DNA of 64,000 nucleotides from Acidobacteriota bacterium (GTDB lineage: Bacteria; Acidobacteriota; UBA6911; RPQK01; JACQSY01), in assembly GCA_016211085.1 (NCBI GenBank), contig JACQSY010000043.1, positions 22,845-86,844 of the forward strand, given 5' to 3'. A program made the position numbers and the translations under genes. Under the pieces are notes generated by a model. The model worked only from the letters and a program-made list of their open reading frames with translations, was not told the DNA's origin and searched no databases. Of this stretch, positions 19,869 to 36,185 are shown in pieces (position 1 is the stretch's first letter; every line of letters begins with the position of its first letter).

Positions 19869-20743
19869 GATTTATGCCATAGGCGCATCGCTCAAATCGC
19901 GAACACTCAAGCATTGGCGCTTACTGCTTGGCCGGCGTCTACAAAGACGAACGCAGACCGAGCGTTCCTGTTAGCGCCATCGGAAAGGATCCGCAAAAAT
20001 CATCTCTGAATGTGCAGTGCGGAAGAAATCAGAGAGGCCCGGCCCCGACTAGGAGCTTGGGGCAAATTGCTGTCGAGACCGGTTAAGAGCGAACTGAGGA
20101 AGGAGGCCCGTCTTCGGCGCGATTACTCCTGGGGCATGTCCGTCGCCGATTTCGAGCCTCCCGAGTTGGAGGTGTGACTCTGTTTTTCTGTCCTTTTACT
20201 CACGCAAGTTTCGGGCCAAAACTAGGATCCTTTTTGACACGGCGAAAAAAGGCTGAAAGCATAGCTGCTTGCGTGACAAAACGAGCTATGGCTACGAAAA
20301 GACACTCCGTCTGAAAACGCTGGCGCGTAAATTCTTGCGAGATTTGCCCCAGAGGAGTTGGCTTTGCGACCCAACTTTGCCGGCGGCGCTTGAGTCGAGC
20401 CATGGCCTTGATCTTCTAAGGGCGAGAACTCGAAAAGGATTCCACTCAAGAATTCCCGGCAAGTTTGACGGGGCAACAGGAGGCTTGGTGCGCTGTTTGC
20501 ACCGTTAAGGTTCTTTGAAGATGCGGGTAGAGTGTACTATTGACACCTGCAGAAGAAATGCCCGCGCCAGGCAAGCTCAGCGCGGTCTGACATCGGAGCC
20601 GCGGCGTGAGCGAGCGGCCACTGAGTGCTGAGGACTGAGCAACGATACTCGCTCAGCACTCAGTCCTGAAAGTGCCTGTCTCTATCAGGCACCGCGGAGG
20701 ACATTACTTGTGCAGGATGCAATACGTAGCCAGTGAGGAGCCA

Positions 20744-22036
20744 ATGAGGCCATCCGTATTTCAATCACTTCTTCCGGAGCGGGGGGACTTTTATTTTTTG
20801 TTCCTGCGCATTTTCACCCTGCTGGGGGGGATAGCATGGTACCTGCTGGTCCCCTATGAGGCCGAACGCCGCAATTTTCTCGCTTGGCTCCTGGGGGCGT
20901 ATGCCTTCTACACCGTATGTCTTTATGCATTGGTGATCCTTCGTCCCGCGGCCATTCGCATTCTCTACCTGGTGACCCTCGCAGTTGATCTCGGTTTTGT
21001 CTACATGCTGATTCTGCATGTTGGCCGGCTGAGGGGGAGTTTTTTCATCGCCTACTATCTCTTGACTGCAGTTCACTCGTTTTATTTTGGTCTGAAAGTC
21101 GGACTCCCTTCGGCACTGGTCATATCTGCCTTATACCTTTCCAGCTATTATCGCTTGAATGGTCCAGTGGTGATTCCGTGGCCTGATCTCATCTTGAGAA
21201 TCTCTTTCTTATTTCTCATCGCGCTCTCGTTGGGTCTTTTGTCCGACCGCGAAAAACGAATGCGGAAAAAACTGCTCGAGCTCAATCAGGAACTGAGCCG
21301 CAAGAATGCCATCCTGGAGCAAACATATCGACACCTTTCAATAGGAAAGTTGATTGGCGAGATTGCAGAAGGTATCAACGGTCCCCTCGGCACCATTTCG
21401 CTACGTTCGGAATTTTTGATGGCCGAAGCGCGCGACCGCAAGATGCCTGCTGAGTTCGCGCGCGGGCTTGAGGTGATGCATCGCTGCAGTCACCAGGTGG
21501 CGCAGGTGGTAAGAAGTCTCCTGGCATTTTCCAAACAGGAGTACGAGCAGCAAGCGCTGAACTTTAACGAGCTGGTGGAGGATGCGCTGTTATTAACGGA
21601 GCGAGGTTTCAAGGGAAAGAATATCACCGTTCAAAAGCAGCTGGAGCCACAGTTGCCCTCCGTTCTGGGAGATTCCTCCGAACTTAAGGGGGTATTGATC
21701 AGCCTCATAAGCAACGCCATCGACGCTTTGCCGAAGGGAGGGACGATCAGGCTGTATACCCGCACCAGTTTTGCTGAGGGCCGATCGGTTATCTGTGAGG
21801 TGCACGATAACGGAACCGGTATTCCGGAAGAGGACCTGGAAATAATTTTTAATCCTTTCTTCACTACCAAGGCCAAAACGGGGGGGATCGGGCTTGGCTT
21901 GTCCACCAGCCTCAGCGTGATGAAAAAGCATAATGGGCTCATTGCGGTGCGCAGCCTTCTTGGGAAGGGTTCGGTGTTCACTATGTCGCTGCCGGCTTTT
22001 CGTCCGGCGCTTCCTGTTCGCAAGGGCGCAGCCTGA
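20744..22036 (+). CDS. membrane-embedded sensor histidine kinase (polytopic N-terminus, HisKA + HATPase_c)
   Basis: Five to six N-terminal TM helices, H-box (…IAEGINGPLGTI…), N/G boxes (HDNGTGIPEE…GGIGLGLS); start uncertain (ORF opens at 20672). Confidence 0.8.
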   Translation: MRPSVFQSLLPERGDFYFLFLRIFTLLGGIAWYLLVPYEAERRNFLAWLLGAYAFYTVCLYALVILRPAAIRILYLVTLAVDLGFVYMLILHVGRLRGSFFIAYYLLTAVHSFYFGLKVGLPSALVISALYLSSYYRLNGPVVIPWPDLILRISFLFLIALSLGLLSDREKRMRKKLLELNQELSRKNAILEQTYRHLSIGKLIGEIAEGINGPLGTISLRSEFLMAEARDRKMPAEFARGLEVMHRCSHQVAQVVRSLLAFSKQEYEQQALNFNELVEDALLLTERGFKGKNITVQKQLEPQLPSVLGDSSELKGVLISLISNAIDALPKGGTIRLYTRTSFAEGRSVICEVHDNGTGIPEEDLEIIFNPFFTTKAKTGGIGLGLSTSLSVMKKHNGLIAVRSLLGKGSVFTMSLPAFRPALPVRKGAA

Positions 22037-22041
22037 AAGTG

Positions 22042-23397
22042 ATGGCAGAAAAAAGCAGAGTTTTGATCCTGGACGAAGCCGACATGGCGGAATCAATCGG
22101 GCTGATGCTGGCGCGTAAGGGATTTGATTGCAACGTTTGTGTGAACCGCAGCGAGCTCGGACGCGTCATTGCATCCACCCGACCAGACATAGTAGTCACC
22201 GGGGTACGGCCGTCGGGTGCGAAGTCCTGGACCATTCTCGAGGTCATCAAGAAGCAAAATCCCGATCTTCCTGTAGTTATTGTCACTGGGTTCGCGACCG
22301 TGGATGCGGCTGTCGAAGCCATGAAAAGGGGGGCTGCTGACTTCATCTGCAAACCCTTCCACGCGGACGAACTGTTTTTGAAAATTCAACGAGCCCTTAC
22401 CCACGTGCAAACTCAAGCGGAAAATTCGCTGCTTCGTCATCAGCTGTATGCCGACGATCACGTATTCCCGGAGCTTCTCGGCCGAAGCAGCGCTATGAAG
22501 CGCGTTTTCGAGATGCTGGAAAGAGTGCACGCCTCGGAGAGCTGTGTTTTTCTTACCGGCGAGAGCGGAACCGGAAAAGAACTGGTCGCACGGGTGATTC
22601 ATCGCATGAGTGCCCGACGCCACGAAAAATTTTTTCCGGTGAATTGCGCGGGAATGGCAGAGAACCTGTTGGAGAGGGAGGTATTCGGACACGAAAAGCA
22701 AGCGTATGCCGGCGCGGCCAGTGCCCGGAGGGGCCTCCTTGAAATGGCGGAACATGGGACCCTTTACCTGAAAGAGGTGGGTGAGACCTCGCTTTCCTTT
22801 CAGGCTAGCCTGCTGAACGTCCTGGAGCACAACGAATTTCATCGCGTAGGAGGGAACAGGGTACTCCACGCCGACGTGCGAGTGATTGCTTCCTCCAGAA
22901 ACAATCTGGACGATCGCATCGCTTCGGGCGCTTTCCGCAAAGACCTGTACTACCGACTGTGCGTGGTACGCATTCATCTGCCTTCCTTACGAGAACGTAA
23001 AGAGGACATTCCTCTGCTGGTGGACCATTTTCTTCACAAGCATGGGCGAAAGATTTCCAAACGGATCACCGGAGTCAGCGCTGAAGCGCTCCAGAAACTG
23101 GAGGCACATTCCTGGCCTGGGAATATCCGGGAACTTGAGAACGTGCTCGAGCGCGCCGTTATCATGGCCGCGGGACAATCAATCACTCCCGCAGATTTGC
23201 TTCTGGAAAGAGCTTCCGAGATCTCAGAACCAGGGCGCCTTACCACGCTGGAGGCCATGGAAAAACAACTGATTGAACGGACTCTGGTCGAGTGTAGGTG
23301 GAATAAGAGCGTAGTGGCCAAAAAGCTTGGCATTGGAAGACGGACGCTTTATGACAAGGCGTCTCGTTTCGGAATTGGCCTCAAACCTGCAGAGTAA
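22042..23397 (+). CDS. sigma-54-dependent response regulator (NtrC family: receiver + AAA+ + Fis-type HTH)
   Basis: Receiver Asp region, Walker A GESGTGKE, GAFTGA-like ESELFGHEKGAYAGA, C-terminal HTH; adjacent to kinase. Confidence 0.85.
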   Translation: MAEKSRVLILDEADMAESIGLMLARKGFDCNVCVNRSELGRVIASTRPDIVVTGVRPSGAKSWTILEVIKKQNPDLPVVIVTGFATVDAAVEAMKRGAADFICKPFHADELFLKIQRALTHVQTQAENSLLRHQLYADDHVFPELLGRSSAMKRVFEMLERVHASESCVFLTGESGTGKELVARVIHRMSARRHEKFFPVNCAGMAENLLEREVFGHEKQAYAGAASARRGLLEMAEHGTLYLKEVGETSLSFQASLLNVLEHNEFHRVGGNRVLHADVRVIASSRNNLDDRIASGAFRKDLYYRLCVVRIHLPSLRERKEDIPLLVDHFLHKHGRKISKRITGVSAEALQKLEAHSWPGNIRELENVLERAVIMAAGQSITPADLLLERASEISEPGRLTTLEAMEKQLIERTLVECRWNKSVVAKKLGIGRRTLYDKASRFGIGLKPAE

Positions 23398-23565
23398 TGG
23401 CTCACGAATCCAATGAACAAATGGGCTGCCGTGTCCGATGCGTTCATTGAGTACGCGTTAGTTTAGACATTCATTAATGCCATGAGGGACGCACCAAAGC
23501 CCGGCTTCGATGGGCCACTGGAGCGCCACTCCGAATCAATGGGCGAGCTAGACCTCGTCTGATTT

Positions 23566-23931
23566 TTGGGTTCACCCATGCTCTACCAAGCTTATGTGCC
23601 AGGCGCTTCAAACAGCACAGCCAAGAAAAAAATTGTATACCTCACACTGGTCACTGAATCGGATGCCGAAATCATGAGCGCTCAAGGTCTTGCTGCTTTG
23701 CGGCGCGAGCGCATGATGCGCCTTTGCCAGGAAGCTCAAGCGCAGGGAGCGCTCCTCGGCTATGAGGATCTGGTTCAGCTTCTCCTGAGCAGTCTCAGCA
23801 CCCTCAAAAGAGATCTGAGATTGCTGCGCAATCAGGGGCAAAGCGTGCCACTCTACCGCAAACGCCAGCGATCCCTGCTGCCACGCCAGATCGGCATTGA
23901 AAAACGTGCCGAGGCTGAAAGCACGCCTTAA
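23566..23931 (+). CDS. hypothetical protein
   Basis: 121 aa ORF between regulator and cytochrome operon; no motif recognised; weak. Confidence 0.25.
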   Translation: MGSPMLYQAYVPGASNSTAKKKIVYLTLVTESDAEIMSAQGLAALRRERMMRLCQEAQAQGALLGYEDLVQLLLSSLSTLKRDLRLLRNQGQSVPLYRKRQRSLLPRQIGIEKRAEAESTP

Positions 23932-24140
23932 GTTGTACTTTCAGAACCCTCGTCTTGGGCTCAAAAGGCCGCACAGACTGTGCAAAAATCACACACTTTG
24001 CCGTCTGTTTGAAAGCGGGTTTTCACCCATAACTGGTTCTAACCTCCCATCTTGGAATGGCTGTTCGAGTTCACACCCGGTCTCCTATTCAGGGCTAATC
24101 CAGAGAGAAACCGCTGCCTGGGCATGCCGCAATGCGCCAG

Positions 24141-24155
24141 GGCACGGGAATTGCT
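24141..24155 (+). promoter_or_regulatory. sigma-54 (-24/-12) promoter candidate upstream of decaheme cytochrome operon
   Basis: GGCACG-GGAA-TTGCT matches TGGCACG-N4-TTGCW with correct GG/GC spacing, ~140 nt upstream of ATG at 24294, next to a sigma-54 activator gene. Confidence 0.6.
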
Positions 24156-24293
24156 CAAGAAGTGAGGGACTTTTTAAAAAAGGAATCGATCAGGAGTGGC
24201 TGCTGGAAGGATCAAGCCAGGCAAACGCGGCCGGTATTGGCAGCCTGGTGATGCAGCGATTAACCACTTCAGTTCACCGTCGAAGGGGGTTTT

Positions 24294-26330
24294 ATGAAAA
24301 TTAAAGGACGCTTTCAAATCTGGGTCGTCGGCTCAGTAATGGTCCTTGGATTCCTCAGTGTCTTTCTTGCCGCCCGCCTGGAAGTGGATCAACAGTATGG
24401 TCCGCTCGATAAGGAATTTTATTTATCTGATACCCAAGTCCAATTCATCAGGCCGGGTTTGGAGTTTCAAATTCTTGAAGTGACCATTGGAGCCGATCGC
24501 AAGCCGGTCGTAAAGATTTCACTCAAGGATCCCAAAGGCTTGCCTCTGGACCGCGATGGCATTTTTACGCCGGGACCGATTTCAACTACGTTCGTTATTG
24601 GCTACATTCCTGCTAACGCCACTCAGTACACGAACTACAATATTCGGAATGTTGCCAGCACGATAACCGGAAAAACCGCCACTCAGGCTACCAGTGATTC
24701 CGGGGGAAAATGGGCCAAGGTGGAAGACGGCGTGTACACGTACACTTTTGGAAATGCGCTGCCGGCAGGCTTCGACGGAAGCCTCACCCACACCATTGCT
24801 GCTTATGCCCGGCGCGACCTGACGGAATTCAATTTGGATCGCTACGTAAAGAACGCCGTATTTCACTGGGTGCCCAACGGGGGGGAAGTGAAGCAATGGC
24901 GCGATGTCGTTCGCACTGCGAATTGTAACGAGTGCCATAACCCGCTTGCTCTGCACGGAGGGGCGCGGCAAGAAGTAGGGTTGTGCATCCTGTGCCATCA
25001 GCCGCAGACCTCCGACCCTGATACAGGTAACACCGTGGATTTCAAGGTCATGATTCACAAGATCCACATGGGTCCCAATCTCCCCAGCGCCAAGGCTGGA
25101 AAACCGTACCAGATTATCGGAAACCAGGGTAGGGTATTTAACTTTTCCGAACACGTGCTCTTTCCGCAAGACATCCGTAATTGTGAAAAATGTCATAAGA
25201 ACGCCACCCAGGGCCTTGCGTACCTGCTGAAACCATCCGCAGCCGCCTGCGGCTCCTGCCATGATGACGTGAACTTTGCTACGGGTGTAGGCCACCCTGG
25301 CGGACCCCAGGCTTCCGACAATCTGTGCGCCACCTGTCATATTCCCGAGGGGGAGCTGGAGTTTGACGCCTCCATTAAAGGTGCGCACAAGATCCCAGCG
25401 AAATCAGCAGAGCTGAAGGGCCTTCAGTTGAAGATTTTAGGGGTCAGCAATACGGCGCCCGGCCAAAGTCCCACAGTTCTCTTTACGGTTACTGAAAAGG
25501 ATGGAACGGCTGTTGCTCCGAGTTCTCTCAACTTCTTACAGCTGGTGCTAAGCGGGCCGACCAAGGACTATGAGAATCTGATCATTGAGCCGGCACGCGA
25601 TGCGGTTCCCACGGCGGATGGCTACACGTACACTTTCAAAGGGAAAATTCCCGAAAACGCCAAGGGGAGCTTCATGGTTGGCGGGGAAGCTTATCGCATG
25701 GTCACGCTGGCTGCTGGAACTACCAAGGAACGACAGGTCCGCGAAACCGCCAATAACCCCGTGCAGTACGTTGCCGTCACGGATGCGAACGCAGTACCGC
25801 GCCGCCAGGTGGTTGCCACCGCCAACTGCAACCGTTGTCACGATGAGATGGTGATGCACGGAACCATCCGGCACGATCCGGAGAAATATTGCGTCGTCTG
25901 TCATATTCCATCAGGTACGGACGCGGCACGCCGGCCTGCAGACCAAATGCCGCCTCAATCTCGTGATTTCCGCTTCATGGTGCACCGCATCCACACGGGT
26001 GCGGATTTGACGCGGGAGTTCTCAATTTACGGCTTTGGCGGAGCCCTGGAGGCGAACGAGATTAACTTCCCGGGCGACCGGCGCGATTGCGAAAAGTGCC
26101 ACGTGAATAACTCCTATCGGCTGCCTCTGGCATCCGGCCTGCAACCGGTGCCGGTGCAGCGGGAATTCTTTACTCCCTATCCTCCCACGACAGCCGCGTG
26201 CCTGGGCTGCCATGACGGCGAAGCCGCGGCCGCTCATGCTTACACCATGATCACGCCGTTTGGTGAAGCGTGCGCTGCGTGCCACGGTACGGGTAGAGAA
26301 TTCGCTGTCGAGAGGGTTCATGCCCGTTAA
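24294..26330 (+). CDS. MtrC/OmcA-like decaheme c-type cytochrome (two pentaheme halves)
   Basis: Ten CxxCH motifs (CNECH, CILCH, CEKCH, CGSCH, CATCH | CNRCH, CVVCH, CEKCH, CLGCH, CAACH) split 5+5 over 678 aa; N-terminal hydrophobic signal/anchor. Confidence 0.65.
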   Translation: MKIKGRFQIWVVGSVMVLGFLSVFLAARLEVDQQYGPLDKEFYLSDTQVQFIRPGLEFQILEVTIGADRKPVVKISLKDPKGLPLDRDGIFTPGPISTTFVIGYIPANATQYTNYNIRNVASTITGKTATQATSDSGGKWAKVEDGVYTYTFGNALPAGFDGSLTHTIAAYARRDLTEFNLDRYVKNAVFHWVPNGGEVKQWRDVVRTANCNECHNPLALHGGARQEVGLCILCHQPQTSDPDTGNTVDFKVMIHKIHMGPNLPSAKAGKPYQIIGNQGRVFNFSEHVLFPQDIRNCEKCHKNATQGLAYLLKPSAAACGSCHDDVNFATGVGHPGGPQASDNLCATCHIPEGELEFDASIKGAHKIPAKSAELKGLQLKILGVSNTAPGQSPTVLFTVTEKDGTAVAPSSLNFLQLVLSGPTKDYENLIIEPARDAVPTADGYTYTFKGKIPENAKGSFMVGGEAYRMVTLAAGTTKERQVRETANNPVQYVAVTDANAVPRRQVVATANCNRCHDEMVMHGTIRHDPEKYCVVCHIPSGTDAARRPADQMPPQSRDFRFMVHRIHTGADLTREFSIYGFGGALEANEINFPGDRRDCEKCHVNNSYRLPLASGLQPVPVQREFFTPYPPTTAACLGCHDGEAAAAHAYTMITPFGEACAACHGTGREFAVERVHAR

Positions 26331-26379
26331 TCTCAGGTTGCGGGCGGGGGGCTGCAGAGCCGCGAACATTACCCGCGAT

Positions 26380-27270
26380 ATGATCCCCCCGCTCGTTTTT
26401 CATAATCGCGGTTCTGTAGCGTTTCTTTGGGGACCGGTCACAGTGCTGTTACTACTGATCCTGGCGCTGGGCGCCGGTCCCGCCCGCGCTCAGGCGCCGC
26501 CGGAAAAAGTCGGTAACGAGACTTGCCTCAGCTGTCACGATGTGGAACCGACGCTCTCCAGAACCCCTCATGCTGCCAAAGAATGTGAAAACTGCCACGG
26601 GCCGGGAAGCACTCACGTTGAAAACGGCGGAGATCTGAGCCTGAGCTTTCGGGCCAATCCAGCCCCATGGGCCGTGACGCAGTGTCTTTCCTGCCATCAG
26701 TCCAACACACACCTCACCGCCTTTCGTGCTTCCGCTCATGGAAGAAATTCCGTCGCATGCGTTTCCTGCCACCAGGTTCACCAGGAGCGTGCGGAGTTTG
26801 GACTCCTGAAAAAAGACCAGGCTGCTGTTTGCACGGATTGTCACCCGGCGACTCGGGCAGAGCTGCGCAAACCGTTCCATCACCCGGTTCTGGAAGGGGC
26901 AATGCGTTGCAGCGACTGCCATCAGCCGCACCTGGAAGAACGCAGGCCGCTGCGACGCCTCGTGCATGGATCTGACGATAGTTGCCTCTCGTGTCACTCT
27001 GATAAGAAAGGTCCTTTTATTTTCGAGCACGCTGCGGTAACGGTGAGTGGCTGTGAAACATGCCATCAGCCGCACGGCTCGGTCAATGCGAAGCTGCTCA
27101 GACGAACGCAAGTGCACCAACTTTGCCTGGAATGTCATAGCCGGACCCCGGGAGTGGCCGGCAAACAGCCTCCCGCATTTCACGATATAAGGACCGCGCG
27201 TTTCCGGAACTGCACGACCTGCCACCGTGAAATCCATGGTTCAAATGCCAGCCGGATCTTCTTCAGATAA
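26380..27270 (+). CDS. MtrA/PioA/MtoA-like periplasmic decaheme c-type cytochrome
   Basis: Ten CxxCH in ~300 aa (CLSCH, CENCH, CLSCH, CVSCH, CTDCH, CSDCH, CLSCH, CETCH, CLECH, CTTCH), signal peptide; size/heme density of MtrA. Confidence 0.7.
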   Translation: MIPPLVFHNRGSVAFLWGPVTVLLLLILALGAGPARAQAPPEKVGNETCLSCHDVEPTLSRTPHAAKECENCHGPGSTHVENGGDLSLSFRANPAPWAVTQCLSCHQSNTHLTAFRASAHGRNSVACVSCHQVHQERAEFGLLKKDQAAVCTDCHPATRAELRKPFHHPVLEGAMRCSDCHQPHLEERRPLRRLVHGSDDSCLSCHSDKKGPFIFEHAAVTVSGCETCHQPHGSVNAKLLRRTQVHQLCLECHSRTPGVAGKQPPAFHDIRTARFRNCTTCHREIHGSNASRIFFR

Positions 27271-27281
27271 TCGAGGACCCT

Positions 27282-29216
27282 ATGCGCCACGCCTCACTCT
27301 TGTTTCGAGCCGGACTGATCGCTGCCCTGAGCATCGCGCAGTTGACCGCAACGCTTTTCGGAAAGGACGAGCGCTATCGATTCAATCTGGATTTTGGCTA
27401 CCGCTGGAAAGCCGGCTTCCGTGGAAGTAAGGACCTCTACCGCAGCCAGTTGGACCTTGGCGAAGGCCCCAAACTTCTGGCGGGTGACTTTTTCGTCTCG
27501 GCGCCGAAAGGATCCAACCGCTGGTTCGATCGTGTGGAACTGCGAATGAACAGTTGGGGGGGCGAGCCCTATAATTCGGCGCAGCTGAGAGCCGCCAAGG
27601 CAGAGCTCTATGAGCTGTTCTTTAGCCATAGAAATGTCCAGTATTTCAACGCCATTCCTTTTTTTGCCAATCCCCTGTTTGAGCAGGGAGTGGCGGCTAC
27701 GCAGCACCATTTCGACATCTCGCACCGCTTCATCAGCACGGATCTGCGCCTGAGACCCCAAAAAGCGGTGGTGCCGTTTCTCTCTTACCATCGCGCCGTG
27801 CGACAGGGACCCGTCCGCACCAGCCTGGTTGCGCAAGGTGATGAGTTCGTCATCCACTCTCAGATTGAAACGCATTCGGATGATTTCAGCGGCGGCGTGG
27901 AATTGAAGTTTGATGCTCTCTCCCTGCTTTTGGAACAGGGGATGCGCCGCTATCGTGACAAGAGCGCTTTTGATTCGCTTGGATTTCAAGGCGGCAATTC
28001 GCCGCGACCGGTGCTGGGCCGCGACATCACGCTGGAACGCTACCTGGCTCGGAATGACTGGGAAACGGATGTCCCCTTCACCAATGTCGTGCTCGCCGCG
28101 CAACCGCATGCAGACCTCAATGTCCGGGGGAAATTCTCTTATAGCATGTCCGATCTGGAGGGCTTGTTCCGGGATGAGGCAATCGGAACCTTCTTTGGAC
28201 GCCCCGAATCTGCGTTCTTCAAGCAGGAAATTCAGAATGTCTCAGGACGTTCCAAGCAGCCGTCCTTGTTCGCGGACGTGTCCGCAGACTGGCGGGTCAC
28301 AGATCGAATTCAAATACTCGAGCATTTTTATACCCGGCGGCTTCACATTTCAGGTTCTGCGGTTTTGGATCGTGTGCTCTTGCAAACGGAGCCGTTGCTG
28401 GGTCCGCCTGCAAGTCAGATCCAACAACGGAGTCTACTCGACGCGTTCCTTGCCTTCGATCAGGATGTTCAGGAGTTACAAGGCATTGTTTATTTCGCTC
28501 CTCGCCTCTCATTTCGAGTAGGCCATCGCTTCGAACAAAGAAACGTAGAGCTTGCGGAGGAATTTTCCTACAACCGCAACGTGGCGATCGCAGGCGTGAC
28601 CTATGAACATTCTGCGACCAACAGGATTTCCGCCGAATACGAATACGGCCACACCACTCAGGCGGTTTTTCGTCTCGACCCGGTGGATTTTCATCGTGCA
28701 CGGGTGCGCGGACGTCTTTCTCCCATAAATTGGCTGGAGCTGAACGGAAGCATTACCTTGTTTGATAACCGTGATCCACAACGCGAAATCGATTGGACCT
28801 CCCGAGATCGAAACTACACGCTCCAAGTCGGCTTCACGCCGCACCAGAGGGTGACGTTTACGGCGGAATATGAACGAAGCAATTTAAGAAGCAACATTAT
28901 TATCATCGTTCCGCAAACGTTCACGCAGGACCGTTCTGTATACCGGGAGAGAGGTGATTATGGTTCGGCCCTGCTTTCAGTGCAGGTGGTACGCGGCGCA
29001 CAGATCGATCTGGGTTATTCTGTCTGGGGGACAGTGGGCAGTTTCCCCATGAGCTATCATCAGCCCATGGCTCGGCTGGAAATCCCGGTCCACAAGAGGC
29101 TGGTGGTGTACGGCCAGTGGAATCACTACGACTACAACGAAAAGCAACTGCTTCTGCCGCAAGACTACCGTGTCCATCTCGCTCTATTCGGGCTTCGAAT
29201 CTTGTTCGAAAACTGA
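27282..29216 (+). CDS. MtrB/PioB-like outer-membrane beta-barrel (porin partner of decaheme cytochrome)
   Basis: Signal peptide, 644 aa with alternating amphipathic beta-strand pattern, aromatic-rich C-terminus; gene order C-A-B as in mtrCAB. Confidence 0.5.
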   Translation: MRHASLLFRAGLIAALSIAQLTATLFGKDERYRFNLDFGYRWKAGFRGSKDLYRSQLDLGEGPKLLAGDFFVSAPKGSNRWFDRVELRMNSWGGEPYNSAQLRAAKAELYELFFSHRNVQYFNAIPFFANPLFEQGVAATQHHFDISHRFISTDLRLRPQKAVVPFLSYHRAVRQGPVRTSLVAQGDEFVIHSQIETHSDDFSGGVELKFDALSLLLEQGMRRYRDKSAFDSLGFQGGNSPRPVLGRDITLERYLARNDWETDVPFTNVVLAAQPHADLNVRGKFSYSMSDLEGLFRDEAIGTFFGRPESAFFKQEIQNVSGRSKQPSLFADVSADWRVTDRIQILEHFYTRRLHISGSAVLDRVLLQTEPLLGPPASQIQQRSLLDAFLAFDQDVQELQGIVYFAPRLSFRVGHRFEQRNVELAEEFSYNRNVAIAGVTYEHSATNRISAEYEYGHTTQAVFRLDPVDFHRARVRGRLSPINWLELNGSITLFDNRDPQREIDWTSRDRNYTLQVGFTPHQRVTFTAEYERSNLRSNIIIIVPQTFTQDRSVYRERGDYGSALLSVQVVRGAQIDLGYSVWGTVGSFPMSYHQPMARLEIPVHKRLVVYGQWNHYDYNEKQLLLPQDYRVHLALFGLRILFEN

Positions 29217-29446
29217 GGATCTTCTCTTTCGGCGGTTCGTTTATCAATCCTTACACACCCACGATTGTTTAGTATCTCGTCGTTGAAGAAAAAATAATCC
29301 ACGAGTGAATGGTTAGTAGCGAAAGGGTTTTTTTGGGGGAGATTGGCTCATTTATTGGGTGAAATACCATGGGCGCATTGGCCTCTTTCACCTTTAGTTA
29401 ACTTAAAGTTTTTTATGCACAGCAAGTTAGGAGATTGGCCATCGTA

Positions 29447-29462
29447 TGGCGATTCCCTTGCA
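29447..29462 (+). promoter_or_regulatory. possible sigma-54-type promoter (TGGC-N8-TTGCA) before cytochrome c gene
   Basis: tGGCgattcccTTGCAt with canonical GG/GC spacing; lies only ~22 nt before the ATG, so TSS geometry is tight. Confidence 0.3.
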
Positions 29463-29483
29463 TCAACCAACATGGAGGAAATT

Positions 29484-29828
29484 ATGAAGAAAGAATTCCT
29501 GCTCTCCTTAATCGCACTTCTCATTTTCAGCTATTCAATCTTGCTGGCAGCGGATGATGGAGCCGCCGTTTACAAAGGCACCTGTTTGAAATGCCACGGC
29601 GAACTCGGAAAAGGGGATGGCCCGGCCTCCAAGATGTTTAAGCAGGGCCTGGGCGATCTTTCAAGCAAGGCCGGAATGGCAAAGTATTCGGATGAAGATC
29701 TTCAAAAGCTCATCTCCGAAGGCGGCCCCGCCATTGGGAAGTCCAAGGTCATGGCCCCTCAAAAAGGGAAGCTAACCGATGCGCAGATCAGAGCGCTGGT
29801 CGCTTATGTGAAAGGGCTCCAAAAATAG
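29484..29828 (+). CDS. monoheme class-I cytochrome c (periplasmic)
   Basis: Signal peptide then CLKCHG heme motif, distal Met candidate, 114 aa; RBS GGAGGA upstream. Confidence 0.7.
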   Translation: MKKEFLLSLIALLIFSYSILLAADDGAAVYKGTCLKCHGELGKGDGPASKMFKQGLGDLSSKAGMAKYSDEDLQKLISEGGPAIGKSKVMAPQKGKLTDAQIRALVAYVKGLQK

Positions 29829-29950
29829 TCGGATCTCGCGTCGGAAACGGAGAGGACCCGCTTTATGGGAGACATTAGAAATTCGCAAAATACCTCCTCG
29901 CTTTTAAGCAGACGGCTTCTCCGTTCCGTCTTTCGTATTGGGAGCATCAA

Positions 29951-30439
29951 ATGAAATGGTTCCTGAGTGGGCTGGTGATCGCCTTTGTTGTGGGAATTGC
30001 CGCACTGCCGCCCGACCTCCTGCAAAAAAAGGTACAGCAGCCGATCGCTTTTAATCATCTTGTGCATAAGGATTTGGATTGCGCCTCGTGTCACGAGTTT
30101 GTCAAAGAACAGGCCTTCGCCGGATTGCCTTCACTGGATGTTTGCCTGGGTTGTCACGAATCCGCTGTGACGGAGAACCCGGAAGAAGAGAAGATTCGCC
30201 AGTTGGCAGCCGAGGGGAAACCGGTGGTCTGGCAAAGGCTGTTTCGCCAGCCAAGCCACGTGTTTTACTCGCACCGGCGGCACGTCACCATCGCCAAACT
30301 CGACTGTCAAAATTGCCACGGCAAGATGGGGGAGAGTCAGTCGCCTCCCCAATCCGTGCACAACCTCACCATGGAAGAGTGTATTTCCTGCCATGAAGCA
30401 AAAGGGGTTCGTGCTGGTTGCGTCGATTGCCATAGGTAG
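29951..30439 (+). CDS. membrane-anchored pentaheme cytochrome c (ActA/QrcA-like)
   Basis: N-terminal TM helix then five CxxCH (CASCH, CLGCH, CQNCH, CISCH, CVDCH) in 162 aa. Confidence 0.7.
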   Translation: MKWFLSGLVIAFVVGIAALPPDLLQKKVQQPIAFNHLVHKDLDCASCHEFVKEQAFAGLPSLDVCLGCHESAVTENPEEEKIRQLAAEGKPVVWQRLFRQPSHVFYSHRRHVTIAKLDCQNCHGKMGESQSPPQSVHNLTMEECISCHEAKGVRAGCVDCHR

Positions 30440-30558: not shown

Positions 30559-32898
30559 ATGAAGTTTAGCCGTAGAGGGTTCGTCAAATTTTCCGCAGGC
30601 TCGGCGGCGGGGTTAGGCCTTGCGGGTGTTTCGCTGAAGACTTTAAGCGATCTGACCGCCGCCACGACAGAAGAGAACTATCCTTCCAAAGGTCCGGAGT
30701 CTTTCCTGAATTCGATTTGCCAGCTTTGCCCGGGCGGTTGTGGTGTCACCGTACGCAAAGTCGGCGATCGTGTGGTTCGCGTCCAGGGAAACAGAAACAG
30801 TCCCATCAACCGGGGCGGTCTGTGCCCGATTGGAGTCGCTTCGCTGCAATATCTCTATCACCCTGCCCGCCTGCGGTCGCCTCTCAAGAGAGAAGGCAGT
30901 TCATGGACCAAGATAAGTTGGGACAGCGCGCTCGGCGAAATCGGGTCCAAACTGAGCTCGACTGTCGGCAGAGGGGAAGGCAGCCACGTAGTGATGCTTT
31001 CGCAGGAACTGCAAGGAGTGTTGCGACAGGTAGCCTCCGATTTTTTGGGCAAGCTGGGATCGAACAATTTGATTGAGACCAGCGGGCCGGGTGATGGAAC
31101 GGGAGTAGCTGTTCGGTTAATGCAAGGTGTACAGAGCCGTCCTGCCTACGACCTCACGAACAGCAATCACATTCTTTGTATTGGGTGTGAGTTGCTGGAA
31201 GGCTGGTCGTCTCCGGTGTGGGTGATGAAGGGCTACTCGCAATTCCGAGGCAAGCGCCCCAGGGGAAGGCTGACCTACGCGGGTTCTCGACAATCCGTGA
31301 CTGCTACCAAGGCGGACACTGCGGTTCAAATCCGACCGGGAACAGAAGGGCTCTTGGCCCTGGGCATCGCTTACGTCTTGATCTCAGAGCGCTTGTACGA
31401 TTTCGAATTCGTCCAATCCCATTGTCAGGGTTTCGAAGATTGGCGGGACGAGAATGGGAGGTGGCACCTCGGGTTTCGCAACATGGTGCTGGAGCGCTAC
31501 CCGTTGAACCTGGTCTCGGAAGTAACCGAGGTTCCCACGGAAAGAATTCTCAAGATTGCCCGTGAGTTCGGGGGAACGCGTCCCGCTCTGGCTCTGGCGG
31601 GTCCAATCGATTCAGTGACCGCCAACAATATTCTGGCAGCGCTCTCGGTTCACGCGCTCAATGCACTCGTAGGAAGCATCGACCGCCGGGGCGGGGTTTT
31701 GCTCCAGTACCCCGATCCGCTGGATACTTCTGAACCTGCTCAAAGCACTCCCTCTTTCCTCGGCAATTTTGCGCAACTTCTCCGGCTGGGCAAGGACCCT
31801 CTGGAAGCGGTAGAGCAGGCATTTGAGTCGGGAAAGCCTTATCTTCCCTCTGCCCTGATTACGCTGGACGCTGATCCCGTCTCTGACTCACATGATGCCA
31901 AAGCGCTTTCAGAAAAATTTCAGCAGGTTCCATTGATTGTCAGTGTTTCCTCTTTTCTAACCGCCACTGCTCAGCTGGCACACTACGTATTGCCCTCAGC
32001 CAGTTTCCTGGAATCTTGGGTGGAGCAGGAAAGCCCGTCGGGAATCCCCTTCCTTTATCACGGACTGGCACAGCCCGCGACCAGCGCGTTTGCAGAGAGT
32101 CGCGCGACCGGTGATATTCTTCTGGGGCTGACGCGATCTTTAGGCGTTCCGGTAAGTGATGAAGATTACGGCGCTCTGCTCAAGAAGAAAATTGCAGGGT
32201 TGTATGAGCGTAAGAGTGGCGCTGTGGCCGGGACGGTTTTCGACCAGCTGTGGCACCAATTGATGGAACAGTCCGGCTGGTGGGCGCCCACTTATGAATC
32301 GCCTGATCAGCTCGTCGAGCAGGTAGCGGCAAAAGGTGGTTGGTGGGACTCCTTTTATCGTTATGAAGATTGGTCCCGAACCCTGAGGAATCCTACAGGA
32401 AAATTCCATTTTAGCGTTTCTGGAATTGAGAGTCTGGTGGGAGGGGAGGCAGCAGGACAACTGGGCAGCTTGCCGCATTTCCAGCCGCCCGCGGAAGGGC
32501 CCGCCTCTGAAAAGTATCATTTTCTGGTCCGCTTCTTTGACCCCCTGGTGGCGGTCTCTCATCAGCCTCCTCTTCCGTTTGTAAGGGAAATTGCAGGAGG
32601 TCTCGTTCAGAATAACGCCGGCATCTGGGTGGAGATCAATGAAGCGGATGCCGAGGAGCTGGGGATCCATAGTGGCGAACTGGTGTGGGTGGAATCCATA
32701 CGAAATCGACTGCAGGTGTTTGCACGGGTCAGCACGGGCGTACTTCCCGGGGTGGTGAATATACCGAGAGGAGTCAGCGGCTGGAGCGGCGACCCCTGGA
32801 GCGTCGGTTCTCCTGTAGCCAGTGCCACACTGGCTGAGCACGGAGCGGATTTCATGCCGAAATGGGGGGAGACTCGAGTGCGGCTCCTCCGTTCGTAG
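30559..32898 (+). CDS. Tat-exported molybdopterin-oxidoreductase-fold subunit (ActB1/QrcB/PsrA-like) with N-terminal [4Fe-4S] motif
   Basis: Tat motif SRRGFVKFSAGSAAGLGLAGV; C-x2-C-x3-C-x(n)-C (CQLCPGGC…C) typical of MopB N-terminus; 779 aa. Confidence 0.75.
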   Translation: MKFSRRGFVKFSAGSAAGLGLAGVSLKTLSDLTAATTEENYPSKGPESFLNSICQLCPGGCGVTVRKVGDRVVRVQGNRNSPINRGGLCPIGVASLQYLYHPARLRSPLKREGSSWTKISWDSALGEIGSKLSSTVGRGEGSHVVMLSQELQGVLRQVASDFLGKLGSNNLIETSGPGDGTGVAVRLMQGVQSRPAYDLTNSNHILCIGCELLEGWSSPVWVMKGYSQFRGKRPRGRLTYAGSRQSVTATKADTAVQIRPGTEGLLALGIAYVLISERLYDFEFVQSHCQGFEDWRDENGRWHLGFRNMVLERYPLNLVSEVTEVPTERILKIAREFGGTRPALALAGPIDSVTANNILAALSVHALNALVGSIDRRGGVLLQYPDPLDTSEPAQSTPSFLGNFAQLLRLGKDPLEAVEQAFESGKPYLPSALITLDADPVSDSHDAKALSEKFQQVPLIVSVSSFLTATAQLAHYVLPSASFLESWVEQESPSGIPFLYHGLAQPATSAFAESRATGDILLGLTRSLGVPVSDEDYGALLKKKIAGLYERKSGAVAGTVFDQLWHQLMEQSGWWAPTYESPDQLVEQVAAKGGWWDSFYRYEDWSRTLRNPTGKFHFSVSGIESLVGGEAAGQLGSLPHFQPPAEGPASEKYHFLVRFFDPLVAVSHQPPLPFVREIAGGLVQNNAGIWVEINEADAEELGIHSGELVWVESIRNRLQVFARVSTGVLPGVVNIPRGVSGWSGDPWSVGSPVASATLAEHGADFMPKWGETRVRLLRS

Positions 32899-32913
32899 CA
32901 GAAGGGCAATTTT

Positions 32914-33597
32914 ATGTCACGTTGGGGAATGATCATTGATCTCGACAAATGCACAGCCTGTCAGGCCTGTGTGGTGGCGTGTAAGGTAGAGAATAACATT
33001 CCATCTCCTCCTGAGGGTGAAGCGCTTAAGAATCGCACCATCTCGTGGATGAAGCTGATTCCACTGCGGAGCGAAGGTTCTGAATCAGAGCGCACGACCT
33101 ACGCACCGGTCGCGTGCCAGCATTGCGACAATCCGCCGTGCATCAAGGTTTGTCCGGTGGATGCGACCAATATTTCCGACGAAGGAATCGTACGCCAGGT
33201 GTATTCGCGCTGCATCGGATGCCGTTACTGCACCAACGCATGCCCTTACACCGTGCGCTACTTCAATTGGTCTGCGCCGCAGTGGCCTGAAGAGAGCAAG
33301 TCTTACTTGAATCCGGATGTCTCTCTGCGGCCTAAAGGCGTGGTTGAAAAATGTACCTTCTGCAATCATCGTTTGCAGAAAGCAAAAGAAATCGCTCGCC
33401 TCGAAGAACGAGAGCTTCACAGCAGTGATTATGTGCCAGCTTGTGTGGAAATCTGCCCGGCCGACGCCTTGGTATTCGGCGACCTTGAAGACTCTGCCTC
33501 GGAAGTTTCCCAACTGGCTAGAAGCCCCCGCGCCTTCCGGCTGCAGGAAGATCTCGGGACAGAGCCCAAAGTAATTTATCTCAGCCAGGGAGAATAG
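32914..33597 (+). CDS. four-cluster 4Fe-4S ferredoxin-type subunit (PsrB/ActB2/QrcC-like)
   Basis: Cys clusters CTACQACVVAC, CQHCDNPPCIKVCP, CIGCRYCTNACP, CTFC…CVEICP. Confidence 0.8.
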   Translation: MSRWGMIIDLDKCTACQACVVACKVENNIPSPPEGEALKNRTISWMKLIPLRSEGSESERTTYAPVACQHCDNPPCIKVCPVDATNISDEGIVRQVYSRCIGCRYCTNACPYTVRYFNWSAPQWPEESKSYLNPDVSLRPKGVVEKCTFCNHRLQKAKEIARLEERELHSSDYVPACVEICPADALVFGDLEDSASEVSQLARSPRAFRLQEDLGTEPKVIYLSQGE

Positions 33598-33600
33598 AAG

Positions 33601-34971
33601 ATGTCGAATGCAACCACTGTACTCGGTCCCGACGAGATATTGCTCGATCCCATCACCAGAACGGGAAAAGGATTTTATTGGCTGGTTGCCGTCTTGGCCT
33701 TGATTGGATTCGGAGGACTGGGAGCCTGGGTTTACCAGCTTATGTTTGGCCTGGGGGTTACCGGATTGAATCGCCCGGTGTATTGGGGAGTGTACATTAC
33801 GAATTTTGTTTTTTTCATCGGGATCAGCCATGCAGGAACCCTGATTTCAGCGATTTTGCGCCTTTGCCATGCGGAGTGGCGTCGGCCCATTACCCGGGCT
33901 GCAGAGGTTATCACCGTCATGGTGCTTTTTTTCGGGGCAGGAAGTGTGATTCTGGATCTGGGACGCCCCGACCGAGCGTTGAATGTTATCTTTCACGGCC
34001 AGGTGCGCTCGCCGCTAATCTGGGACGTGTTGAGCATTTCCACTTATTTAACCGGGAGTATTATTTATCTTTATCTGCCGCTGATCCCCGATATCGCTCT
34101 CCTAAGGGATCGGATGCCCCACCGCCGCATCTATCGCCTGCTGGCGGTTGGTTGGCAAGGTACGCCCAAACAGCATCGCGTGCTTGAGAAAGCCATTGCC
34201 ATCATGGCCGTCATCATCGTTCCCATTGCGGTAAGCGTGCACACCGTGGTGTCCTGGGTCTTTGCAATGACCGTGCAGCCCATGTGGCACAGCACTATTT
34301 TTGGTCCTTACTTTGTCGTGGGCGCGATTTTCTCGGGTATCGCCGCACTGATTGTAGCCATGGCCCTGATCCGGCACTTTTATCATCTGGAAGATTATTT
34401 GAAGCCGGTTTCCTTTAACAATCTTGGTTTGTTGCTGTTAGTGATGAGCCTGCTTTGGCTCTATTTCACCTTCGCGGAATATCTGACCACTTACTATGGA
34501 GCCGAGCCTTTTCACATGACCGTATTTTCCAGCAAGGTTACCGGCCGTTTTGCCATTCCCTTCTGGAGCATGTTTGTTCTGTGTTTTGTGATTCCGGCTG
34601 CAATTCTGGGGAATAAGAAGACCCGGACTGTCAAAGGCTGTGTGATCGCTTCTATTGCCGTGATCATTGGCATGTGGCTGGAGCGCTACATCATAGTGGT
34701 TCCGACGCTTTCACGACCGCGTCTTGCAGTAGAGGTTGTCCCCTACGCCCCCACCTGGGTCGAAATGGCCATGACGGCGAGCTTCTTTTCCCTGTTTATT
34801 CTCCTGTACCTCCTATTTACTAAGTTCTTCCCAATTATTTCCGTCTGGGAAATTAAAGAGGGTAGAGAGAAATCCGTTTCGGACGTAGTGGAGCGGGTTC
34901 AGGGATACCTGCCGGGGGATTCGAGCAACCGCAAAATAGAAACGTTAAAGTCGCAGCTGGGGCATTCATAA
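33601..34971 (+). CDS. NrfD/PsrC-family quinone-interacting integral membrane subunit (ActC/QrcD-like)
   Basis: 456 aa, ~10 TM, NrfD-like N-terminal region (…LNRPVYWGVYITNFVFFIGISHAGTLISA…). Confidence 0.8.
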   Translation: MSNATTVLGPDEILLDPITRTGKGFYWLVAVLALIGFGGLGAWVYQLMFGLGVTGLNRPVYWGVYITNFVFFIGISHAGTLISAILRLCHAEWRRPITRAAEVITVMVLFFGAGSVILDLGRPDRALNVIFHGQVRSPLIWDVLSISTYLTGSIIYLYLPLIPDIALLRDRMPHRRIYRLLAVGWQGTPKQHRVLEKAIAIMAVIIVPIAVSVHTVVSWVFAMTVQPMWHSTIFGPYFVVGAIFSGIAALIVAMALIRHFYHLEDYLKPVSFNNLGLLLLVMSLLWLYFTFAEYLTTYYGAEPFHMTVFSSKVTGRFAIPFWSMFVLCFVIPAAILGNKKTRTVKGCVIASIAVIIGMWLERYIIVVPTLSRPRLAVEVVPYAPTWVEMAMTASFFSLFILLYLLFTKFFPIISVWEIKEGREKSVSDVVERVQGYLPGDSSNRKIETLKSQLGHS

Positions 34972-34991
34972 GAGCCAAGAGGCATTGATCG

Positions 34992-36185
34992 ATGATTTTT
35001 TCAAAATCTTTAGCACGTTTTTCGATTTTCACTTTGGCCATTCTGCCGGCTTCTTTGCTAGCTCAGGAAAAAGAAGAGAACCTGCTCGACGGTAACCCGG
35101 TACACGGCCGAGAGCTTTTCGTTTCCAAGAGCTGCATTGAATGTCACTCGGTGAGGGGCGCGGGGGGGTCTGTCGGTCCGGATCTCGGATTGAAAGTCTT
35201 CAATCGCAGTGTGTACGAGATCTCGGGAATTTTGTGGAATCACTCTCCTTACATGAGCCGCAAGATGCGGCAAATGGGAGTAAGACGGCCGCAGTTTGAA
35301 CCGAGCGAAATGCTCGACCTAGTTTCGTTTTTGTATTTCTTGAATTATTTTGACCCCCCGGGAGACGTCCAGTTGGGACGTCAGCTGTGGGTTGAAAAAA
35401 AATGCTCCAGTTGTCACCCGGTGGAAGGCGAAGGCCCCAAGCTGGCACCCGGGCTGGATAAGATGCAGAGCCCCACAACCTCTGTGTTTCTTGCCCAAAG
35501 TATGTGGAACCACGGTTCGCAGATGCTGGAGACTTTGCGACGCATGAATCTGGATCCGCCTGCTTTTCGTGGAACTGAAATGGTGGACCTAGTGGCTTAC
35601 ATTCGACACATTAACCGCAATCCGAGCCGTCAGCTTTTTAGTCTGGGTGAGCCTCGCCAGGGTGAGAGATTGTTTCGCATTAATGGTTGTGCCTCATGCC
35701 ATGCCGCACAAGGAGCAGCGCGAGCCTCAGCTCCCGACCTGCGAGCGGCACGATTGCAAGCCAGTGTAAGCCAGATTGCCGGCTTGATGTGGAACCATCT
35801 CCCGAACATGCTTTCCAGAATGAGGCAGCAGCAGATGCGTTTCCCGACTTTCTCGGGCCAGGACATGAATCATTTGATTTCCTACCTCTATTCGCTGGCT
35901 TATGTAGGGAAACCGGGAGATCCGCAGAAAGGCGCCACTGTTTATCGCGAGAAGCAATGCCTGAGTTGTCATGGGGAGCCGGGAAAACCTGGGCAGCGCA
36001 TTGGTCCCGACCTGGCGAAGGCCACCCTGCAATCGCCGTTAGGGGCAGCCCCGTTCATGTGGAACCATGCTGTCGAGATGGAAGGTTACATGAAGGAGCG
36101 TAATATCCTGTGGCCTCGATTCGAAGGTACTCAGATGGCTGACCTGCAGGCCTATTTAAAAGCTTCAGCTGCCAAATCGAAATAG
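34992..36185 (+). CDS. tetraheme cytochrome c built from four tandem class-I domains
   Basis: Signal peptide; four ~95-aa repeats each with CxxCH (CIECH, CSSCH, CASCH, CLSCH) and a conserved MWNH…DLV/AYL pattern. Confidence 0.75.
   Translation: MIFSKSLARFSIFTLAILPASLLAQEKEENLLDGNPVHGRELFVSKSCIECHSVRGAGGSVGPDLGLKVFNRSVYEISGILWNHSPYMSRKMRQMGVRRPQFEPSEMLDLVSFLYFLNYFDPPGDVQLGRQLWVEKKCSSCHPVEGEGPKLAPGLDKMQSPTTSVFLAQSMWNHGSQMLETLRRMNLDPPAFRGTEMVDLVAYIRHINRNPSRQLFSLGEPRQGERLFRINGCASCHAAQGAARASAPDLRAARLQASVSQIAGLMWNHLPNMLSRMRQQQMRFPTFSGQDMNHLISYLYSLAYVGKPGDPQKGATVYREKQCLSCHGEPGKPGQRIGPDLAKATLQSPLGAAPFMWNHAVEMEGYMKERNILWPRFEGTQMADLQAYLKASAAKSK

Follow-up and report, generated by a model that had tools for sequence, protein, structure and literature searches.

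A highly diverged MtrCAB-like porin-cytochrome gene trio in an uncultured acidobacterium

Three consecutive open reading frames (ORF1, ORF2 and ORF3) on the + strand at positions 24294-29216 of a 64,000-nucleotide stretch of DNA, taken from a metagenome-assembled genome (MAG) of an uncultured member of the Acidobacteria, are, to judge from their sequences, a clear and highly diverged relative of the MtrCAB electron conduit of Shewanella. The whole stretch is called the window below. Little is known of the respiratory abilities of Acidobacteria, which rank among the most abundant bacteria of soil, peat and groundwater. The trio is not a chance association: both of its cytochromes score above the curated cutoffs of their families, and the same three genes recur together in approximately 80 other genomes. 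An earlier interpretation made from the letters of this DNA (the sequence-only reading) had placed the three genes at exactly these positions and had compared them with mtrC-mtrA-mtrB. This comparison holds for both cytochrome families and, through remote homology, for MtrB, but ORF3 is not detected as MtrB/PioB by Pfam or NCBIfam, so that the case for calling it “MtrB-like” is made by its predicted fold, by profile comparison and by gene order.

Mtr-like systems of Acidobacteria are already known. Homologs of MtrA and MtrC were noted in this phylum in 2013 (PMC3669403), an MtrB-like porin-cytochrome cluster was reported from Holophaga in 2020 (PMC7399161), and a 2026 preprint describes a sequence-divergent, Mtr-like extracellular electron transfer (EET) system named EET2 in Bryobacterales on the basis of structural modeling and transcription data (10.64898/2026.05.27.727921). 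A large survey of Mtr systems from 2022 does not mention Acidobacteria (PMC8805035). The conduit described here belongs to a separate sub-clade and has two extras specific to its locus, namely coupling to a module that resembles alternative complex III (ACIII) and Qrc, and apparent sigma-54 control.

An entire acidobacterial sub-lineage appears to carry an Mtr-type conduit, of which the locus described here is a clear-cut case. In standard annotation the barrel is labeled “hypothetical”, which leaves only two of the three components with a name, and surveys based on hidden Markov models (HMMs) that require an MtrB match may consequently miss such conduits (compare PMC8805035).

ORF1 is a decaheme cytochrome of the MtrC/OmcA family

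The first gene encodes a protein of 678 amino acids whose hemes fall into two pentaheme halves, as had been described, with CXXCH motifs at residues 211, 231, 297, 319, 345 and 512, 533, 599, 636, 660. It matches the TIGR03507 model with 493.9 bits (cutoff 209.3), covering positions 5-672 of the 672 in the model, and PF22113 is found in two stretches (9.6e-53). The closest PDB sequence is that of MtrF (8e-33), followed by OmcA, UndA and MtrC. The NCBI record of the protein, which is 100% identical, already carries the name of the OmcA/MtrC family.

An AlphaFold2 (AF2) model computed with 58 relatives in the alignment (predicted local distance difference test, pLDDT, 92; predicted template modeling score, pTM, 0.85) consists of four domains, in which beta domains (residues 57-192 and 378-494) alternate with heme domains (residues 208-364 and 509-675). 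In a Foldseek search of the PDB, the top 16 matches are all outer-membrane cytochromes of Shewanella (UndA, OmcA, MtrC and MtrF). Template modeling (TM) scores are 0.58-0.68 for the 15 full-length structures, while rank 16 is a fragment comprising domains I-II (TMq 0.33, TMt 0.74). An alignment that takes in Photobacterium MtrC shows complete conservation of all ten CXXCH motifs. Overall identity to the Shewanella and Photobacterium homologs is approximately 16-27%, and identity to Photobacterium MtrC within the heme domains is 23-27%.

Each of the 20 cysteines of ORF1 resides in a CXXCH motif. The missing lipobox cysteine to which the sequence-only reading had drawn attention is therefore real, and it proves to be a trait of the whole clade, as a lipobox is absent also from 113 of 115 full-length relatives, whereas Photobacterium MtrC carries LLAAC. 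The lipobox is a feature of Shewanella-type proteins that the TIGR03507 HMM does not demand. Likewise, neither ORF1 nor 105 of 117 relatives contain any non-heme cysteine, and they consequently lack the disulfide pair of domain III; the non-heme pairs of Photobacterium MtrC are C462/C472 and C499/C510.

The hydrophobic stretch at the N terminus of ORF1 spans residues 7-27 (approximately 21 residues), more than is usual for a signal peptide that is cleaved off, and residues 2-34 form a single helix in the AF2 model. Many relatives carry ordinary signal-peptidase I sites (VWA/Q, AWA/N and SAA/T, where the slash marks the cleavage site), and for this reason ORF1 is expected to be a cleaved, soluble protein. 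An uncleaved signal anchor is possible in view of the length of the hydrophobic segment.

ORF2 belongs to the MtrA/DmsE family

The reading frame of ORF2 is open from position 26260. The start chosen by the gene caller yields 316 amino acids and an 11-nucleotide overlap with ORF1, while an ATG at 26380 yields 296 amino acids with a signal-peptide-like hydrophobic N terminus ending in ARA/QA. With either start the protein agrees with the earlier description of some 300 residues and ten closely placed hemes, since it contains 10 CXXCH motifs spaced 20-33 residues apart. It scores 224.6 bits on TIGR03508 (cutoff 192.2), matches the MtrA chain of the solved Mtr complex (PDB 6r2q_A) at 3e-39 over residues 99-330, and shares 32% identity with Photobacterium MtrA (E 6e-43). 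Only two methionines accompany the ten CXXCH motifs, which suggests that the hemes are bis-histidine ligated.

Grouping with unrelated multiheme families had been raised in advance as a check on the two cytochromes; they fall instead into the OmcA/MtrC (TIGR03507) and DmsE/MtrA (TIGR03508) families. A Geobacter-like reading of the trio as an OmcB/Pcc-type complex was also considered and is rejected by the family scores and the arrangement of the genes; the GSU2203-family decaheme model reaches 179 bits against a cutoff of 325.

ORF3 is a predicted barrel remotely homologous to MtrB

ORF3 encodes 644 amino acids and has no cysteines at all; its NCBI record (locus tag HY645_05140) is 100% identical. 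The sequence-only reading had described a protein of this length as resembling an outer-membrane beta-barrel and had taken a prediction of fewer than 20 strands as grounds for rejection. The predicted structure (mean pLDDT 91.1, pTM 0.82) is composed almost entirely of 27 beta-strand segments, well beyond that limit. The closest solved structure is that of MtrB, which superposes over 541 residues, and the model has the size and fold of MtrB, with perhaps 26 strands in the barrel.

Single-sequence searches are silent on this relationship: phmmer finds no match to ORF3 among PDB sequences, and BLASTP finds no similarity between ORF3 and Photobacterium MtrB. Weak matches to PF11854 (MtrB_PioB) occur in 8 of 46 distant members of the barrel family, the best at 4e-5. 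As a reference for homology we used a genuine mtrCAB locus, that of Photobacterium sp. DA100, whose barrel scores 510 bits on PF11854. Alignment of the acidobacterial family profile (A2) with Photobacterium MtrB by hhalign gave probabilities of 83.5-93.6% (E 8e-6 to 2e-7) and 509-536 collinear columns that run from end to end. Controls gave probabilities of 0.5% for reversed MtrB, at most 0.3% for eight shuffled sequences, 0.5% for E. coli LptD, which is the other 26-strand barrel, and 0.8% for FhuA. On the strength of these profile comparisons we place ORF3 in the MtrB/PioB superfamily as a very distant member, outside the reach of the family models now available.

Cysteine-free barrels account for 135 of 169 family members, and ORF3, being one of them, does not have the N-terminal CXXC, a signature of metal-reducing Gammaproteobacteria that Photobacterium MtrB carries as C39-x2-C42. 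The relatives of ORF3 are all “hypothetical proteins” without Pfam domains, and almost all come from Acidobacteria MAGs. One family member of 1065 amino acids (P0060, from a 701-kb contig) was considered as a Rosetta-stone fusion of a barrel with a four-domain cytochrome c. However, a signal peptide is retained at the junction and the last approximately 70 residues of the barrel are gone, implying that the fusion is probably a frameshift or gene-call artefact, and for this reason it is not used as evidence.

The barrel is linked to MtrA-like genes across Acidobacteriota

A profile search of a 1.84-billion-protein library recovered 1,991 representative clusters of the barrel family at E<=1e-3; the ranking covers the best 150 of these 1,991 matches and does not place the point at which canonical MtrB/PioB proteins enter. 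Members occur in at least 102 GTDB species genomes, nearly all of them Acidobacteriota (Bryobacterales, Solibacteraceae, Terriglobia, Blastocatellia and unclassified groups), with a few MAGs labeled otherwise. The barrel in the window is 40-55% identical to those of its own sub-clade, which is made up of unclassified Acidobacteriota MAGs, and 25-32% identical to Bryobacterales-type barrels.

Gene order was evaluated in 80 fetched loci from approximately 80 species-level genomes, and the denominators given here are the numbers of evaluable loci. The gene immediately upstream of the barrel gene is MtrA-like in every case (79/79), and the next gene upstream is MtrC-like in 53 of 64. Moreover, the cytochrome c with four class I domains that the window encodes at 34992-36185 has a homolog directly after the barrel gene in 24 of 70 loci, which makes this protein a recurrent partner of the conduit. 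The invariable link to an MtrA-like gene is the strongest contextual evidence that the barrel acts as a cytochrome sheath. The barrel family together with its constant MtrA-like neighbor could also serve to mark the potential for EET in Acidobacteriota.

Additional MtrC-like genes were observed in some relatives. In a closed 5.1-Mb Acidobacteriota MAG (CP070717.1, loci L001/L030), a second MtrC-like paralog lies directly after the barrel gene (12139-14154 in L001), reminiscent of the omcA or mtrF duplications in Shewanella. Tandem MtrC-like genes are located upstream in loci L011, L025 and L049.

An ACIII/Qrc-like module follows the trio

The conduit genes are followed on the same strand, and with short gaps, by a set of genes that could carry electrons from quinol to the periplasm. 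Features of the locus are collected in Table 1.

Table 1. Features of the conduit locus and its flanks, with positions in the window
Feature	Position	Strand	Basis
Membrane histidine kinase, probable sensor for the cluster	20672..22036	+	HATPase_c, HisKA; regulatory link from position
Sigma-54-dependent response regulator	22039..23397	+	Sigma54_activat 1.7e-58, Response_reg, HTH_8
Sigma-54 promoter-like site, GGCACG-N4-TTGCT	24141..24155	+	139 bp upstream of the ORF1 start codon
ORF1, MtrC/OmcA-family decaheme cytochrome, 5+5 hemes, four domains, no lipobox	24294..26330	+	TIGR03507, PF22113, AF2, Foldseek
ORF2, MtrA/DmsE-family decaheme cytochrome, predicted periplasmic	26320..27270 (alternative start 26380)	+	TIGR03508, PDB 6r2q_A
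ORF3, predicted large outer-membrane beta-barrel, remote MtrB/PioB homolog, cysteine-free	27282..29216	+	Fold, profile comparison, gene order
Monoheme class I cytochrome c, signal peptide, 114 aa	29484..29828	+	Cytochrom_C, Cytochrome_CBB3
Pentaheme ActA/QrcA-like cytochrome	29951..30439	+	Five CXXCH; PDB ActA chains
QrcB-like molybdopterin-family subunit, exported by twin-arginine translocation (TAT)	30559..32898	+	Molybdopterin, Molybdop_Fe4S4, Molydop_binding domains
Four-cluster iron-sulfur (FeS) subunit, QrcC/DsrO-like	32914..33597	+	QrcC 290.6 bits; DsrO 195 bits
NrfD-family membrane quinone/quinol subunit, closest to ActC	33601..34971	+	PDB ActC chains; NrfD Pfam 3e-34
Periplasmic cytochrome with four class I c-type domains	34992..36185	+	Cytochrom_C x4, 4 CXXCH

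The small monoheme cytochrome that begins this set would be a periplasmic carrier. The pentaheme protein matches the ActA chains of ACIII, first 8k9e_A (3e-23) and then 6btm_A and 6f0k_A (down to 4e-16), and the membrane subunit matches ActC chains over their full length (6f0k_C 1.6e-71, 6btm_C 3.4e-71 and 6lod_C 2e-67). The QrcB-like protein has a twin-arginine N terminus (RRGFVKF) and a four-cysteine FS0 motif (CX2CX3C...C). The protein may therefore bind cofactors that Qrc and ACIII are not known to retain.

Qrc equivalog models all score below their cutoffs (QrcA 119/180, QrcB 288/440, QrcC 291/400 and QrcD 47/570), while ActD, ActE and ActF are absent from the downstream cluster and the part corresponding to ActB is split into two genes. 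The module is called an ACIII/Qrc-like hybrid for these reasons. We considered whether it is a conserved neighbor of the conduit and rejected the idea, given that part of it is nearby only in locus L012 among the 80. The product of the last gene in the set has 397 amino acids, each repeat following the pattern CXXCH...GPDL...WNH...M, and has no relative among PDB sequences.

Predicted path and direction of electron flow

The gene products suggest the following route. Quinol would be oxidized at the inner membrane by the ACIII/Qrc-like complex formed from the ActC-, QrcC-, QrcB- and ActA-like subunits, and the class I cytochromes c (29484-29828 and 34992-36185) would ferry electrons across the periplasm. 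ORF2, exported to the periplasm, would be threaded through the ORF3 barrel of perhaps 26 strands and so span the outer membrane, an arrangement consistent with the adjacency of the two genes in all 79 loci. Its outer end would contact ORF1, which would present ten hemes outside. Electrons would thus pass from the class I cytochromes to the MtrA-like protein in the barrel, on to the MtrC-like protein, and finally to acceptors that are insoluble or bulky, for example Fe(III)/Mn(IV) oxides and humic or particulate organic matter. Lacking a lipid anchor, ORF1 would have to be kept in place by protein-protein contacts to the MtrA-barrel unit, or else would be released. Combined with the downstream module, which would take the place of CymA, ORF1-ORF3 could make up an uninterrupted route leading from the quinone pool out to the cell surface.

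We favor an Mtr-type conduit with the MtrA-like protein inside the barrel, the MtrC-like protein outside and electrons flowing outward (probability about 0.6), although sequence cannot settle the direction, which the sequence-only reading had likewise left undecided. The chief argument for outward flow is that no MtrC or OmcA homologs were found in 73 genomes of Fe(II) oxidizers (PMC5566968), which indicates that an MtrC-type outer cytochrome is typical of reducers. In addition, multimer models of the Bryobacterales proteins are reported to form Mtr-like conduits (bioRxiv 10.64898/2026.05.27.727921), which counts in favor of this reading.

Several observations weigh against it. This clade of conduits is known from sequences and models alone. 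ORF3 has no Pfam or NCBIfam match, with none to PF11854 even at E<=10, and a profile of 48 ORF3 relatives searched against PDB sequences does not find the solved MtrB (6r2q_B) at E<=10. Shewanella MtrC passes through type II secretion and is then lipid-anchored outside (PMC12175506). ORF1 lacks the anchor that puts this protein at the surface (PMC12175506), and no type II secretion genes were found among the window ORFs of at least 150 amino acids scanned against Pfam. Class I carriers and an ACIII-like module are features of pathways proposed for Fe(II) oxidizers (PMC4412085, PMC5566968). Apart from a partial instance in L012, none of the 80 relatives shares the ACIII-like module that stands beside the conduit in this genome, and the sigma-54 site is not conserved, being present in 5 of 53 related loci where approximately 1.8 are expected.

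The most serious competitor, which we consider possible and clearly less probable, is that the same conduit runs inward, resembling the Mto/Pio model. Extracellular Fe(II), reduced humics or a cathode would supply electrons to the MtrC-like protein, and from there they would pass through the MtrA-like protein and class I cytochromes c to a terminal oxidase or reductase, possibly the type II DMSO-reductase-family enzyme encoded at 9742-17447, while the ACIII-like complex would operate in reverse to feed quinones. Such a role fits the class I cytochromes c in the cluster, one of which has homologs after the barrel in 24 of 70 loci, in parallel with mtoD in the mtoAB cluster; MtoD is a class 1 cytochrome at +155 mV (PMC4412085). 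The ActC-like character of the membrane subunit also fits, since ACIII figures in proposed models of EET in Fe(II) oxidizers (PMC5566968), as do the two feoB genes and the genes for a periplasmic Nar/Nxr-like enzyme that occur close by. However, canonical Mto/Pio systems lack an MtrC-type outer decaheme cytochrome (PMC5566968), whereas an MtrC-like gene is present here in 53 of 64 loci. The missing CXXC of the barrel, a motif that Photobacterium MtrB has and that Shewanella MtrB needs (PMC12175506, citing Wee et al. 2014), might likewise be taken to favor electron uptake, but this signature is described for Gammaproteobacteria only and its absence in Acidobacteria therefore says little. Moreover, sequence does not reveal heme potentials, and complexes of the NrfD type can operate in either direction.

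A related and more speculative proposal, which we regard as rather unlikely, is that the ACIII-type module, the class I cytochromes and the anchor-free Mtr conduit constitute a self-contained, 12-kb high-potential pathway that is bidirectional or serves electron uptake. If so, Fe(II) or reduced organic matter would be oxidized and electrons delivered to oxygen or to the Nar/Nxr-like enzyme, and the unanchored MtrC-like protein could be a releasable extracellular cytochrome.

It is also conceivable, at low probability, that ORF1 never reaches the surface and instead acts as a periplasmic or inner-membrane-tethered decaheme relay, leaving only the MtrA-like protein and the barrel as the outer-membrane module, as in MtoAB/PioAB. 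The absence of a lipobox in ORF1 and in 113 of its 115 relatives, the hydrophobic segment at residues 7-27 (long for a cleaved signal, with the AF2 helix at 2-34) and the lack of secretion-system genes among the window ORFs scanned against Pfam (at least 150 amino acids) all agree with such a location. Signal length is not diagnostic in this genome, though, since the signals of ORF2 and ORF3 are equally long, and ordinary signal-peptidase I sites are common among the relatives of ORF1. Geobacter, furthermore, has secreted multiheme cytochromes that are not lipoproteins. ORF1 also retains the complete four-domain fold of surface cytochromes, and the tight order of mtrC, mtrA and barrel genes mirrors that of Shewanella. 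These points count against retention of ORF1 inside the cell envelope.

Finally, a DmsEF-type arrangement, in which the MtrA-like protein and barrel would feed an extracellular molybdoenzyme made of the QrcB- and QrcC-like proteins and reducing a soluble or colloidal substrate, is very improbable: a molybdopterin protein with a TAT signal and a four-cysteine FS0 motif is indeed encoded with an FeS subunit 1.3 kb downstream, and TIGR03508 is named for DmsE, but these genes lie between those for the ActA-like pentaheme protein and the ActC-like NrfD protein in an ACIII/Qrc rather than a DmsAB layout, their top family matches are QrcB and QrcC, and the module is absent beside the conduit in nearly all relatives.

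Comparison with known systems

The trio shares with MtrCAB of Shewanella (6R2Q; MtrC 4LM8, MtrF 3PMQ, OmcA 4LMH and UndA 3UCP) the gene order C, A, barrel, the 5+5 heme layout and four-domain fold of the outer cytochrome, a periplasmic decaheme protein of approximately 300 residues, and a barrel predicted to have the MtrB fold. Unlike the Shewanella-type proteins, ORF1 has neither a lipobox nor the cysteine pair of domain III, and ORF3 has no cysteine or CXXC. The quinol link in Shewanella is CymA with STC/FccA, whereas here it would be an ACIII/Qrc-like complex with class I cytochromes, and regulation at this locus differs in probably proceeding via sigma-54. Two of these differences, the lack of a lipid anchor and the coupling to an ACIII-like module, set the locus apart from the Shewanella model in concrete and testable ways.

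EET2 of Bryobacterales (Fiorito et al. 2026, bioRxiv 10.64898/2026.05.27.727921), which was compared by its description, comes from the same phylum and has the same layout of MtrC-like, MtrA-like and porin genes. It likewise shows low identity to canonical Mtr proteins, and Bryobacterales barrels belong to the ORF3 family. In Bryobacterales-type loci the four-domain class I cytochrome gene comes directly after the barrel gene, whereas in the window the ACIII/Qrc-like module is inserted between the two.

MtoAB-MtoD/CymA of Sideroxydans and PioAB of Rhodopseudomonas also have an MtrA-family decaheme cytochrome beside a barrel of the MtrB/PioB superfamily. Their barrels are recognized by PF11854, whereas ORF3 is not. 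MtoD provides a class I cytochrome c within the same cluster, as is the case here (PMC4412085). An MtrC-type outer decaheme cytochrome, absent from Mto/Pio clusters (PMC5566968), is present in the acidobacterial locus.

The downstream module has in common with ACIII (ActABCDEF; 6BTM, 6F0K and 6LOD) its ActC-like, ActA-like, molybdopterin-like and FeS subunits. The latter two are encoded separately, as in Qrc (QrcABCD) of Desulfovibrio, whereas they are fused as ActB in ACIII. Unlike both Qrc and ACIII, the QrcB-like protein keeps the four-cysteine FS0 motif. Lastly, the OmaB-OmbB-OmcB and ExtABCD complexes of Geobacter follow the same logic of a periplasmic multiheme cytochrome, a porin and an outer multiheme cytochrome, but the trio in the window has cytochromes of the MtrA and MtrC families and a barrel that resembles MtrB in size and fold.

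Upstream region and regulation

ORF1-ORF3 are probably expressed from a sigma-54 promoter under the control of the histidine kinase and response regulator encoded upstream. The regulator comprises a receiver domain, an AAA+ sigma-54 activator domain and a Fis helix-turn-helix domain. The site at 24141..24155 is the only exact match to GGCACGNNNNTTGCW (core GGCACG-N4-TTGCW) on both strands of the 64-kb window, where 0.17 are expected. A scan of 23300-36900 for terminators and promoters produced fewer matches than shuffled sequence and is uninformative on operon structure.

A small DUF1670 ORF (23566-23931, +; 85 amino acids according to gene callers) is situated between the response regulator gene and the sigma-54-like site. 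Genes for Rrf2-family regulators lie near the conduit both in the window (18873-19271, +) and in a Bryobacterales locus (L002, 9763-10224), and this family might provide a recurring iron or redox regulator of the conduit. A second pair consisting of a sigma-54 response regulator and a HAMP histidine kinase is encoded at 38746-41677 (-).

Other redox genes in the window

The set at 9742-17447 (+) encodes a periplasmic enzyme of the type II DMSO-reductase family that resembles Nar, Nxr and the chlorate and selenate reductases. It includes a fusion of cytochrome c with an EB_dh heme-b domain (9742-11403), a molybdopterin subunit of 1153 amino acids, an FeS subunit of 526 amino acids and a Nitrate_red_del chaperone. 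The enzyme may accept electrons from, or donate them to, the periplasmic cytochromes that are proposed to serve the conduit.

Beyond the conduit locus, an NrfD-family membrane protein without an adjacent FeS or catalytic partner is encoded at 36762-38060 (-). A second membrane redox module at 42486-45388 (+) consists of a multiheme cytochrome of 314 amino acids, a 4Fe-4S protein and NrfD. Genes for glutamyl-tRNA reductase (hemA), CcmE and two FeoB ferrous-iron transporters are located beside the cytochrome clusters at 45584-52377 (+). Also, a multiheme cytochrome of 500 amino acids with an N-terminal region of the NapC/NirT family is encoded at 57864-59366 (+), and it is possible that this protein is a CymA-like quinol dehydrogenase that could serve as an alternative inner-membrane partner of the conduit.

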